DNA of 64,000 nt from Pseudobdellovibrionaceae bacterium (GTDB lineage: Bacteria; Bdellovibrionota; Bdellovibrionia; Bdellovibrionales; JAMPXM01): NCBI GenBank assembly GCA_947462815.1, contig CANHQR010000004.1, positions 13,099 to 77,098 of the forward strand, read 5' to 3'. Both the position numbers and the translations under genes were made by a program. Under the pieces are notes generated by a model. It was not told where the DNA came from. It searched no databases and saw only the letters and a list, made by a program, of their open reading frames with translations. Below are positions 25,902 to 29,171 of this stretch, piece by piece (position 1 is the first letter of the stretch; each line of letters begins with the position of its first letter).

Positions 25902-26690
25902 ATGCTCAATTCCCCATCAACTCCCGACTCCGCGCCACGTCACCTCCATCTTTTCGGCGACAGCCTCATGCGCGGCGATCTGGGGGATGGCTGGTGGCAA
26001 AGGCTCGGAGCGAGCCTAACGCCGACCGAACATTGGCAGATCCAAAACTTTGCACGAAACGGCGAAACCTTTGCGTCGCTCTTGAAGCTCGTCCAGCGGG
26101 ACCAAGAAGCCAACTCACCTCGCTTCGTTGGCGATCTGGCCCTCATCAGCTGTGGCACAAACGATGCTCTCGCCAAAACCTCAACTCCGGCACGAATCGC
26201 TTACAATTTCTATTGGGGGACGCGAGCGAGCTCGCCCGACTCGGTCGCTCTCGCCATGGCGGTCGCTCGACAACTTCGCCAACGCTATCATCGCGTCGGT
26301 CTGTTGCTTCCCCCGTCGCCTCACGTTTCGCAAGAGAGTGGTCGGTTTGGCGAGGAGCTGCGGCATTTGCGTTCGAGCCTCCTGAAAGCCAGGCCTCTCT
26401 TCGAAGCTCAGTCGCAGCTTGAACTTCTCGAGATCAATTCGCCAAAAGATCAATCCGAAGCTCCAACTCACACCGACTTTCCGCAAGGCCTTTCCGCCAT
26501 TGTCCGAGGCTACTTGCGAAAGAAAGTTTTCGCCGAGCCGACGGCCATCGAGTTTTGGCACGATGGCATTCACCTTGGTCGCCAAGGTGGCGACGCCTTT
26601 TTGCAGCTCAGTCTCGATTTCATCACCCGTGCAATTCACAACATGGGTGAGACCACGGAGCTGAACAACGACTCGCATCGCACACCTTGA
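25902..26690 (+). CDS. SGNH/GDSL hydrolase
   Basis: Block I FGDSL, block II 'NFARNGET', block III GTND, block V DGIH. Confidence 0.88.
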   Translation: MLNSPSTPDSAPRHLHLFGDSLMRGDLGDGWWQRLGASLTPTEHWQIQNFARNGETFASLLKLVQRDQEANSPRFVGDLALISCGTNDALAKTSTPARIAYNFYWGTRASSPDSVALAMAVARQLRQRYHRVGLLLPPSPHVSQESGRFGEELRHLRSSLLKARPLFEAQSQLELLEINSPKDQSEAPTHTDFPQGLSAIVRGYLRKKVFAEPTAIEFWHDGIHLGRQGGDAFLQLSLDFITRAIHNMGETTELNNDSHRTP

Positions 26691-28111
26691 AGGGCCGGCC
26701 GTCGCGGAGTCGAAATCGGTACGCGGCTTCCGGGAACAAAACTTCTCACCCTCAGGTCGACCATCTGCAGGCCCCGATGCCGAAGTGTTGCCTCTTCAAA
26801 CTGTCGCCGCATGCTTTCAACCCACTCATCCTGGCGACTCAAATTCATGCTGGGCACTCGCACGGGTTGTCCCACCGTTACCGTTAACGGCGCATCACGC
26901 GTCGATGACAAATGCTCCATGGCGTTTGAGAACACGGGCAGAAGATAGACAGGTCTTGAACCGTTGGCCTCGCTCGACGCCTCGATCGCCAGTCGTCGAG
27001 CCAGAACAAAGGCCCCCGACTTCGTGATCGGCGGAAATCGTGCATGAAAGTAGGGAACTTGGCCCTCCGGAGCAATGCTCACGACGCGTCGGCCTTCCGT
27101 TGTCGATGAAGAAGGATCTAAGGCCATAGACGTCAATCGACGAATGGGATCTCCATCCTCGATGAACACGACATTGCGCTCGCGAGGTCGACCCAACTTG
27201 TAGTGGGGCCAAGATCGCTCAACGGTCAACAAACCCGGAGCCGTGTCGCCAAGCCTTGCCGCCACCCGCTCGGCCATCATCACATCAAACATGGCGTAAT
27301 CATGCGAGAAGGCGAGAACAAAGATGGCGTGACGAGGCGCTTGGCTCAAATCGAAGCCGACATATCGAAGAGCCTCACGGGAATCCGCCCGCGAAAAGGT
27401 ATGATCGGGCAGGCGATGCAGATGCTCAAAGAGTCGGTGACCCCCAACCACGGTGTCCGCAACATAGCGGTAGGGCACAAGGGTTTTCGCTCGGGCCGTT
27501 GGCATCACGAGGTTAAGGTCTTTGATGAGCGGATTCGAGATCAACTCACCCGGTCGGCGCAATACCGACGTCGCGGCCTGCAATCGGCGATCGAGCTCAA
27601 GCCAAACGCTTTCTCTTCGGGAGGCTCCGCTTCCCCATTCGCCCATCTCACGCAATACCTCAAGGCCCGCGTCTAAGGCCTTCACAAAGCCGGCCTCATC
27701 GTTGGCCAGCTGCGCGGCATACTGTTGGCGAAGCTCGGGGGTCGCGGGCGCGCCCGCGAAGAGAACTCGATAGCGCTGGAGAAAGTCTTGCCCTCGCTCG
27801 CGCAGAGCTTGCTGGAAGCTGTGCACCGTTGCTAAGCGAATTTCAATGGCCCGACCACTCTCGATCTCTCGCAGAGAATCGACCAGGTCGCGTTCAACAC
27901 TCTGATCCAACATTTGCAAATAGTTTACAAAGCTCACTTCCCAAGCTGTCGGCTCTCGAGGCTCGTTCGCGTCGGCGATCCACGAGACCCCCAGCGGCGC
28001 CGTGAGACCAACAACTAAGATCAGACTTTTCAATATTCTGGTCGATGTTCTGGTCGATATTTTGGGCGATCGATCGCTGCGCTGTTTGGCGCGGCAAAGT
28101 TTGGCGTTCAT
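26636..28111 (-). CDS. secreted protein with a divergent lysophospholipid-acyltransferase-like C-terminal domain and terminal CxxLF motif
   Basis: Signal peptide (ADA-N); 'SHDYAMFD', 'IAPEG', 'KSGAFVLA', 'LLPV' resemble PlsC blocks I, III and IV; ends GVRCESLF-SSVVSPML. Confidence 0.65.
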   Translation of the reverse strand: MNAKLCRAKQRSDRSPKISTRTSTRILKSLILVVGLTAPLGVSWIADANEPREPTAWEVSFVNYLQMLDQSVERDLVDSLREIESGRAIEIRLATVHSFQQALRERGQDFLQRYRVLFAGAPATPELRQQYAAQLANDEAGFVKALDAGLEVLREMGEWGSGASRRESVWLELDRRLQAATSVLRRPGELISNPLIKDLNLVMPTARAKTLVPYRYVADTVVGGHRLFEHLHRLPDHTFSRADSREALRYVGFDLSQAPRHAIFVLAFSHDYAMFDVMMAERVAARLGDTAPGLLTVERSWPHYKLGRPRERNVVFIEDGDPIRRLTSMALDPSSSTTEGRRVVSIAPEGQVPYFHARFPPITKSGAFVLARRLAIEASSEANGSRPVYLLPVFSNAMEHLSSTRDAPLTVTVGQPVRVPSMNLSRQDEWVESMRRQFEEATLRHRGLQMVDLRVRSFVPGSRVPISTPRRPALQGVRCESLFSSVVSPML

Positions 28112-28112
28112 T

Positions 28113-29171
28113 TCAGCCCCCGGCGGCGGGAAAAAAGAGATGCATGCATTTGAATCCCACCTCGCGGAGACCGCTCAGCCAATCCGATTGCGCAGCACGA
28201 ACTTCAGTGGCCTCCGGGGATCGAAAGACAACCGCCAAGCGACGCCAGAATCCGGCGCGAGAGATCGCGAGCCTCAGACGCTCTTCCGCCTCGGCCAATC
28301 GAGCACCTCGCGCGAGAAGCGCCCAGGCTTCCGAACTCAAATCGGTTTGCGGGATCAACGCGAATTGACTTCTTAACCGCTGTCCCAACCCCGGATTCTC
28401 AGCCAAGCGTTGATCTAAGGCGGCCATCATCATGCGCAAACGCAGGCGCCGATCTGGAGACTCTCGCTGAATCAATCGCATCAACTCGGCATCTTCAAAG
28501 ACTTGAGCGAGTCTCTCCTCCGCACCGACGGCGAAGACGTACGCCCGACCATCGAGGCGAACCTGCAAGGCATCGATTTGCTGGGGAGTCGCACCCAGAA
28601 TTTCTCGCGCTCGAGGCGTCAACAACGGAGCGACACCAGCCTGAGCGCGCTCCGTCGCGGTCAGTCCCATCTGCCGATTGAGGCGACGCTCGCGAATCAA
28701 GCGCTTCACTCTCACATAAGCATAGTCGACAATCTCAACGTCCGCCGGAACAGTGAGCATCACCGCCACGATTTCGTAATAACCCATAGAGATCAGAGTC
28801 GGATAGACCAACACGAAGCGGCTGATCCTCTGCAGGCCATCAATTGCGACGACCTCGGGCGCTTCGATCATCAAGCCTTCGACAAAACGACCTAAACTCT
28901 TCACCTGTCGCAGAGTCTCTCGAGTGTACAGACTCAAACGTCGTCGAACTTCAGTACGCTGTTGGGGTGTCGCGTTTCGCCATTCGGCCCAACGATTCTC
29001 GAGCAGTTCCAGCTCGACCTGTGCACTGATCTCAAGGGCCTGTTCGGCTTGCGCGAAGCGAGTCGCATCGCTCCGGTTTTGCTGCGACACGAGTTCATCA
29101 GCTGAACTCGTGTAGGTCCAACCTCCGAACAGAAACAAAAGCGCCGCAAGGGCTGAGCGGATGAACGCCAA
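28113..29171 (-). CDS. secreted alpha-helical hypothetical protein with terminal CxxLF motif
   Basis: TTG start with RBS gaggag; signal peptide (SSA-D); ends GFKCMHLF-FPAAGG; 1 bp from the next gene. Confidence 0.7.
   Translation of the reverse strand: MAFIRSALAALLFLFGGWTYTSSADELVSQQNRSDATRFAQAEQALEISAQVELELLENRWAEWRNATPQQRTEVRRRLSLYTRETLRQVKSLGRFVEGLMIEAPEVVAIDGLQRISRFVLVYPTLISMGYYEIVAVMLTVPADVEIVDYAYVRVKRLIRERRLNRQMGLTATERAQAGVAPLLTPRAREILGATPQQIDALQVRLDGRAYVFAVGAEERLAQVFEDAELMRLIQRESPDRRLRLRMMMAALDQRLAENPGLGQRLRSQFALIPQTDLSSEAWALLARGARLAEAEERLRLAISRAGFWRRLAVVFRSPEATEVRAAQSDWLSGLREVGFKCMHLFFPAAGG

Follow-up and report, generated by a model that had tools for sequence, protein, structure and literature searches.

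Two neighboring genes in a 64,000-nucleotide stretch of a Pseudobdellovibrionaceae genome (assembly GCA_947462815.1, contig CANHQR010000004.1; this whole stretch is hereafter the window), which we call gene A and gene B, encode unrelated exported proteins that end in the same kind of short, cysteine-containing tail. We find tails of this kind at the C-termini of further exported proteins in the same genome and of three unrelated protein families across the phylum. Judged by these comparisons, the tail is a portable motif, selected at the protein level, tied to proteins with signal peptides and typical of Bdellovibrionota. It is very probably a functional, export-linked thiol tag, and we use the word tag in this sense throughout.

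Two unrelated exported proteins share a cysteine tail

Genes A and B are both encoded on the minus strand, with the TGA of gene A separated by 1 base from the ATG of gene B. Gene A (28113-29171) is an open reading frame (ORF) for an exported, mostly helical orphan protein of 352 aa, and gene B (26636-28111) encodes an exported protein of 491 aa, in which a helical bundle at the N-terminus is predicted to precede a PlsC/PatA-like acyltransferase domain and the tag. A BLASTP comparison shows no relationship between the two proteins (best E = 6), and neither has a Pfam or NCBIfam family. Near their ends, they carry the octamers G-F-K-C-M-H-L-F (gene A, 28134-28157, 6 residues before the end) and G-V-R-C-E-S-L-F (gene B, 26663-26686, 8 residues before the end). 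An initial annotation, made from the letters of the window, had described two unrelated, co-oriented genes of secreted type, 1 bp apart and with a shared octamer, and our coordinates, ORFs and BLASTP comparison agree with it. Counted from the Cys, the tag of gene A runs from Cys342 to the end (28116-28148, C-M-H-L-F and 6 further residues, the last being P-A-A-G-G) and is delimited by sequence and orthologues. In gene B it runs from Cys479 to the end (26639-26677, C-E-S-L-F and 8 further residues, the last being S-P-M-L), delimited in the same way and by a structure model.

Both N-termini look Sec-like by eye: a basic stretch leads into a hydrophobic core, and a small-x-small pattern follows. 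The signal peptide of gene A, as read from the sequence and by a hydrophobic-segment heuristic, takes up residues 1-24 (29100-29171) and passes from T-S-S-A into D-E. In gene B, the signal peptide region, read from the sequence, is longer (residues 1-46, 27974-28111), with a long basic stretch, a hydrophobic core and W-I-A followed by D-A; an 85%-identical gene B orthologue has a canonical short signal peptide. Gene A encodes a single Cys in the whole protein and gene B encodes two, the other being residue 6, N-terminal to the signal peptide's hydrophobic core. In both proteins, the mature chain contains no Cys besides that of the tail, and the Cys counts thus bear out what had been read from the sequence.

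The tail is enriched at the ends of exported proteins

We made a proteome-wide census of this genome and of 41% of G114, a complete genome from another family of the same order. The genome studied here comprises 3.43 Mb in 107 contigs, has 55% G+C and is 96% complete; its 2668 genes were called with a home-made coding model, and the calls are crude. A protein counted as exported if a simple test detected a hydrophobic segment at its N-terminus, a crude heuristic that takes in 795/2668 proteins. An earlier signal-peptide rule was dropped, having proved too permissive (1068/2668) and having missed obvious cases.

The full motif of the initial annotation, G-x-[RK]-C-x-x-L-F, has two matches among the 2668 predicted proteins, the tails of A and B themselves. 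The G-x-[RK] part of that motif does not generalise, and it is the core, C-x-x-hydrophobic-Phe, that is general. Its strict form, C-x-x-[LIVM]-F, has 97 matches among 969,123 residues, and in 11 proteins no more than 9 residues follow it, where about 2.7 would be expected per 10-residue bin. Counts in six internal control windows were 5, 3, 2, 1, 1 and 4, and none of 200 within-protein shuffles reached 11 (mean 3.0, standard deviation 1.6, maximum 7). The excess sits in the exported class, which has 8 terminal core motifs against 0-1 in each of the six internal control windows, as the proposal of a signal on secreted proteins had predicted. The cytoplasmic class has 2 (internal mean 1.5) and the membrane class 1 (internal mean 0.3). 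Put differently, 8/11 terminal-motif proteins have an N-terminal export segment; the other three have no clear one and are uncertain. In 6/8 exported tagged proteins, the tail Cys is the only Cys past the export segment.

In a motif-free test of where the Cys lies in exported single-Cys proteins, 10 were near the end against 9.8 expected, showing no signal. With the loose pattern C-x-x-[LIVMFA]-[LIVMFYW], enrichment was weak in the exported class (17 against 8.2) and absent in the whole proteome (38 against 35.5). A position-weight scan of tails scored the seeds at 11.8 or more, which is circular for the seeds; the next best tail scored 6.1, and the best internal control window 10.6. In the first 1.52 Mb of G114, two exported proteins end in [RS]-C-S-x-V-F followed by 1-2 residues, against 0.3 expected, and gene B family members of the genus of G114 also have ends like [RS]-C-S-x-V-F.

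By Pfam, the eight exported tagged proteins are A, B, a weak IucA/IucC match, a circularly permuted ATP-grasp (E 7e-31), a Peptidase_C92, a flavin amine oxidase and two without a family. We observed Sec-type signals on the IucA/IucC-like protein, the circularly permuted ATP-grasp, the LPLAT-like acyltransferase and the amine oxidase of this genome. Enzymes of the tagged types normally use ATP, acyl thioesters or FAD, which is odd for the periplasm.

The tail is conserved as protein sequence

Close relatives of A and B are found only at about genus level. Gene B was found in 2/41 relatives searched, and the only close relatives of gene A are 75-76% identical. The orthologues of A and B are 67-85% identical and keep the tail. 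The initial annotation had set beforehand that loss of the Cys or of the Leu-Phe pair in orthologues would speak against it; the Cys, Leu and Phe are all kept. Over the last 21 codons, each gene shows 10 synonymous differences from a same-genus genome, including differences in the Cys, Leu and Phe codons, and in the gene A tail two x positions change residue with the Cys, Leu and Phe retained. The synonymous changes at kept Cys, Leu and Phe argue that selection acts on the protein and not on a DNA element. The octamers of A and B also differ from one another at about half their bases. Over a greater distance, across 26 family members that share 17-81% identity, conservation of Cys479 of gene B is at least 90%.

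The tag recurs in unrelated families across the phylum

A search of 1.84 billion cluster representatives brought up 58 distant relatives of gene B. Almost every full-length one starts with a signal peptide and has a Cys at 4-16 residues before its C-terminus, and five relatives without a signal-like start also lack the tail Cys. Many of the distant relatives (P0037-P0062, about 930-1040 aa) are twice as long, with an unassigned N-terminal half of about 550 residues before the B-like part and the same type of Cys tail.

Homologues of the IucA/IucC-like protein were found in 17/35 genomes of the bacterial family, and the strict core ends 14/17 complete foreign ORFs, including copies that are only 23-29% identical. 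In the phylum sample, such homologues occur in 22/201 genomes, and most of them end in a lone Cys with a looser hydrophobic pattern. Orthologues of the exported ATP-grasp were present in 25/201 phylum genomes, with 29 relatives in a large protein collection. In this family, a conserved G-K-V-N-[LI]-S closes the catalytic domain, and the short tail after it usually holds the only Cys of the protein. The tag is also found in complete genomes of a same-order genus, g36.

A Cys lies 4-22 residues from the end in 132/155 complete proteins of three unrelated families (51/60, 49/57 and 32/38), a pooled count over related sequences rather than independent samples that we give as a count, with no statistical test. 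Among the 128 distinct tails, numbered from the Cys, position +4 is hydrophobic in 94% and is Phe in 68/128, position +3 is hydrophobic in 73% and position +7 in 61%, and position +1 is mostly Glu, Arg or Lys. At least 4 residues always follow the Cys, most often 5-10. The general core is C-x-x-hydrophobic-Phe/hydrophobic followed by 0-18 further residues, with G-x-[RK] not part of it.

The tag and the signal peptide occur together

The ATP-grasp family, through which the range beyond Bdellovibrionota was sampled, shows how closely the tag follows export. Named genome records yield 49 homologues that span the entire domain and are intact at the C-terminus. Of these, 45 combine a hydrophobic segment at the N-terminus with the tail, and 42 of the 45 contain exactly one Cys. 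The tail is thus found in 45/46 homologues that have a signal peptide, the last Cys of the exception lying 40 residues from the end; one further homologue has the tail and an N-terminus cut by the contig end. The two homologues with neither feature are the only Myxococcota records, one a metagenome-assembled genome and the other Minicystis rosea. The titles of the other records are mostly those of Bdellovibrionota (Bdellovibrionaceae, Pseudobdellovibrionaceae, Bacteriovoracaceae and Oligoflexia), and a few are broadly labelled as 'Proteobacteria bacterium', 'Pseudomonadota bacterium' or 'uncultured bacterium'. The phylum sample gives a similar picture, with segment and tail together in 17 rows and the segment only in one. 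Three distinct ORFs of 490-509 aa have neither segment nor tail and stop right after the domain, and two of these contain 5-7 Cys in the body of the protein.

Some ATP-grasp orthologues (L058 and L059, also L063, L065 and L068) have signal peptides of the lipoprotein type, with I-S-S-C or I-A-S-C, and keep the C-terminal Cys tail; in at least two of them a clear N-terminal lipobox stands together with the tail. In these proteins, plain anchoring by the tail would be redundant. Enzymes with cytoplasmic cofactors that carry Sec signals suggest action inside another cell.

Gene B resembles LPLAT acyltransferases, and gene A is an orphan

An alignment of 26 gene B family sequences (17-81% identity) has an invariant His270 within N-H-D-x4-D, which sets the second Asp one residue further from the His than the classic H-x4-D does. 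It also has a Pro-Glu-Gly block, motif III, with P348 and G350 invariant and E349 at least 90% conserved. The AlphaFold2 (AF2) model of gene B (pLDDT 85, pTM 0.82) consists of a helical bundle at residues 56-240, an alpha/beta domain at residues 249-451 (26759-27367, minus strand), which holds both blocks and is delimited by alignment, AF2 and Foldseek, and a low-confidence tail. The tail is modelled as disordered and detached from the domain, with a mini-helix at residues 479-483, exactly over C-E-S-L-F. The best Foldseek matches are PatA, PlsC, GPAT and LpxM, with a probability of 0.97-1.0 for the LPLAT chains ranked 1-15 at E about 1e-3; PatA (5f31) matches at E 9e-4 and PlsC (5kym) with a target-normalised TM-score of 0.52, and these E-values are modest. 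By sequence, gene B has no match to Pfam PF01553, a relative (P0055) reaches 21.1 bits, under the cut-off of 23, and the family profile finds nothing significant among PDB sequences. From fold and conserved blocks, we predict that gene B is an exported LPLAT-like (PlsC/PatA-like) acyltransferase. It is like PlsC, PatA, GPAT and LpxM in its fold and Pro-Glu-Gly block, has a conserved His-Asp block with the longer spacing, and differs from them by export and by the additional N-terminal helical bundle. The AF2 model of gene A is poor (pLDDT 43), and the protein has no usable match in the protein atlas; gene A is an orphan. A predicted complex of A and B scored 0.00 in both runs.

Upstream of gene A, we find a Na+/H+ exchanger with TrkA-C domains. 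On the other side, a convergent gene for a GDSL-type hydrolase (25902-26690, plus strand; Pfam E 9e-9) overlaps the final 55 bases of gene B, and the tag codons of gene B are thus read on both strands. This overlap does not explain the tag, because the tag is kept in relatives with other neighbors. We calculate a probability of about 0.04 that 11 tagged genes out of 2668 would include any adjacent pair. Beside two IucA/IucC-like homologues (L041 in G096 and L045 in G184), neighboring ORFs of 414 and 426 aa are also tagged and have an amphipathic stretch after the last Cys; tagged genes thus tend to cluster there, as A and B do.

What the thiol may be used for

The initial annotation proposed a sorting or attachment role for the tail, by loading of the Cys or by lipidation, and these we treat as candidates. 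Our own tentative preference is for a disulfide tether, either between tags or from a tag to a carrier. The tail would act as a flexible linker, followed by a Cys that opens a very short amphipathic segment, C-x-x-hydrophobic-Phe, often with a hydrophobic residue at +7. A lone thiol on a flexible tail in an oxidising compartment should end in a disulfide or be modified. Following Sec export, it could be captured as a disulfide by a fused VKOR-DsbA protein and a second DsbA, with a partner thiol on another tagged protein or on a shared carrier, and with docking through the tail's hydrophobic face. Tagged enzymes would in this way be tethered or assembled outside the cytoplasm, and the disulfide would reopen in a reducing compartment such as the prey cytoplasm, where ATP and acyl thioesters are available. 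VKOR and DsbA domains are encoded in one 453-aa frame (G000:C12:37976-39058), a second DsbA is also present, and DsbB has no match in this genome, which is 96% complete. Domain content therefore points to a putative fused VKOR-DsbA oxidase as the periplasmic disulfide system. No neighbor family recurs around the 11 tagged genes, and neither a CPBP protein nor a second Lgt is universal among tag-bearing genomes (see below); as far as gene content can indicate, a dedicated enzyme does not appear to be needed for the tag.

Several points weigh against a disulfide tether. The disulfide, its partner and the carrier are each inferred. The Phe at +4 is kept across unrelated families, which suggests one common receptor pocket rather than tail-to-tail pairing, and 9/11 tagged genes of this genome stand alone. 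Even and odd Cys counts are unbiased (0.48 in the exported against 0.47 in the cytoplasmic class), so heavy reliance on periplasmic disulfides cannot be shown. Finally, those known systems that come closest in having an invariant C-terminal Cys rely on a lipid and not on a disulfide.

That last point leads to a lipid anchor or sorting tag, in which the amphipathic tail would lie on the membrane surface and the thiol would receive a lipid, perhaps from an Lgt-type transferase. What follows the Cys might be trimmed, and the destination of the lipidated protein would be the outer membrane, the surface, vesicles or the prey. We consider this possible, if somewhat unlikely. An invariant Cys near the C-terminus with hydrophobic residues at +3, +4 and +7 resembles the CAAX box and the CPBP-linked signals described in the article text of Haft's preprint (10.1101/2023.06.07.544157), and the text of a further article proposes that an Lgt-like transferase lipidates the MYXO-CTERM Cys (PMC11980579). 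This genome has two Lgt-family genes (at G000:C33:6678-7673 and G000:C42:14190-14885). One, of 262 aa, adjoins lspA-like and ileS-like genes; the other, of 492 aa, is extended at its N-terminus and contains an insertion. At least two Lgt matches occur in 90/101 phylum genomes that are at least 95% complete. A second Lgt is nonetheless common rather than universal, and we rejected it as an obligatory partner: G115 has one Lgt match and yet a tagged ATP-grasp. CPBP was rejected in the same role, because PF02517, present in 151/201 phylum genomes, has no match in the tag-bearing G114 and G094 (both 99% complete); the one CPBP gene of this genome has relatives in just 9/201 phylum genomes. The tail also offers no membrane helix or basic cluster to hold the Cys at the membrane, and residues -3 to -1 form no lipobox, with -1 most often Ser, Arg, Phe or Lys and -3 mixed. 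The ATP-grasp orthologues that are already N-terminal lipoproteins keep the tail all the same.

The tag could also be a signal that involves no bond to the thiol: the short helix would dock in a receptor of an outer-membrane or prey-delivery pathway, with the Cys as part of the recognised face. A motif common to unrelated cargo and carried on a flexible linker would suit such docking, as would cargo types that normally need cytoplasmic cofactors and, once exported, should function only in the cytoplasm of another cell. A lone, nearly invariant Cys is, however, costly in an oxidising compartment if its chemistry serves no purpose; none of the counted tails has Ser or Ala in place of the Cys (a count anchored on the Cys and thus partly circular), and no receptor candidate was found. 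We regard non-covalent recognition as quite unlikely. C-terminal tails with thiols or non-polar ends have latency and turnover roles elsewhere, and the tail here is added after the last conserved element of the catalytic domain, in exported forms only, as it would be if it kept the enzyme inactive, or marked it for a tail-specific protease, until the place of action is reached. One tail would then have to inhibit the active sites of an ATP-grasp, an acyltransferase, a papain-like amidase and a flavin oxidase, and in gene B it is modelled detached from the domain, making this reading very doubtful. That the likeness is a matter of chance, or of a DNA-level element at gene ends, is scarcely credible. 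The motif is short, and its loose form is no more frequent proteome-wide than expected, but the shuffles and window controls, the divergence of the two octamers at the base level, the synonymous changes at conserved residues and the recurrence of the tail in three families across the phylum all speak against it.

Implications for predatory Bdellovibrionota

We know of no sequence signal that separates the outward or prey-sent proteins of Bdellovibrio-like predators from ordinary periplasmic ones. The initial annotation envisaged prey-directed effectors, and delivery to the prey cytoplasm would fit the cargo list of ATP-grasp, IucA/IucC-like, acyltransferase-like, amidase and flavin amine oxidase proteins. 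At its most far-reaching, the tag would be the first linear cargo label of predatory Bdellovibrionota: a thiol handle that needs little machinery, placed on Sec-exported enzymes of cytoplasmic type for covalent hand-over into the prey and released by the reducing prey cytoplasm. We think this unlikely as a whole. If it were true, listing the tagged proteins would amount to listing the effector set of each predator. A short, easily searched tag on about 10 exported enzymes per genome would allow candidates to be listed directly. It would also be a rare example of a lone Cys conserved in an oxidising compartment, pointing to a chemistry that bacterial protein sorting is not yet known to use. Should the genus g36 have members in culture, the idea would be open to standard genetics and mass spectrometry.

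Comparison with known C-terminal and cysteine tags

Searches of Pfam, NCBIfam and the full-text literature returned no description of such a tail, and the curated NCBIfam signal models gave no C-terminal match, at E up to 1, in the 9 tagged proteins scanned. Among known Cys-based signals, the N-terminal lipobox (Lgt, LspA, Lnt) likewise uses a single Cys in exported proteins, and this genome has the two Lgt-family genes noted above. The tag differs in lying at the opposite end of the protein, without Leu-(Ala/Ser)-(Gly/Ala) before the Cys and without a signal-peptide helix that presents the Cys to a membrane enzyme. The IgM tailpiece and the acetylcholinesterase T peptide are C-terminal Cys tails that serve disulfide assembly or thiol-mediated retention. 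They share with the tag a lone Cys in a short, amphipathic C-terminal tail, whereas they are eukaryotic and unrelated to it in sequence; we know of no bacterial counterpart of such tailpieces.

Tripartite signals of the MYXO-CTERM type come closer. As with the tag, they are borne by signal-peptide proteins, have an invariant C-terminal Cys, are common to unrelated proteins of one lineage and are encoded by genes that do not lie beside the processing enzyme. Their motif is rich in Gly and Cys and is followed by a transmembrane helix and an Arg/Lys cluster, whereas the tag reads C-x-x-hydrophobic-Phe and has neither element, with 4-22 residues after the Cys. A cognate CPBP (PF02517) is expected in each genome with a MYXO-CTERM-type signal, and the tag occurs in genomes that have no match. 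None of the exported proteins of this genome has the order Cys, helix, basic tail. By these sequence features, the tag is not a tripartite sorting signal. The word 'Bdellovibrio' occurs 0 times in the main text of the Haft preprint (10.1101/2023.06.07.544157) and of PMC11980579.

The tag and the CAAX box are both very short C-terminal motifs in which a Cys is combined with aliphatic or aromatic residues and no membrane helix is involved. In eukaryotes, the CAAX box directs prenylation, cleavage by Rce1 and methylation. Its Cys is fourth from the end, whereas the Cys of the tag is fifth to twenty-third and never fourth, and the tagged proteins are exported by Sec, so that any modification would take place outside the cytoplasm. 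Of all known systems, C-terminal signals with a Cys, as in Myxococcota and other groups, and the CAAX box come nearest, and the tag departs from both in features that define them.

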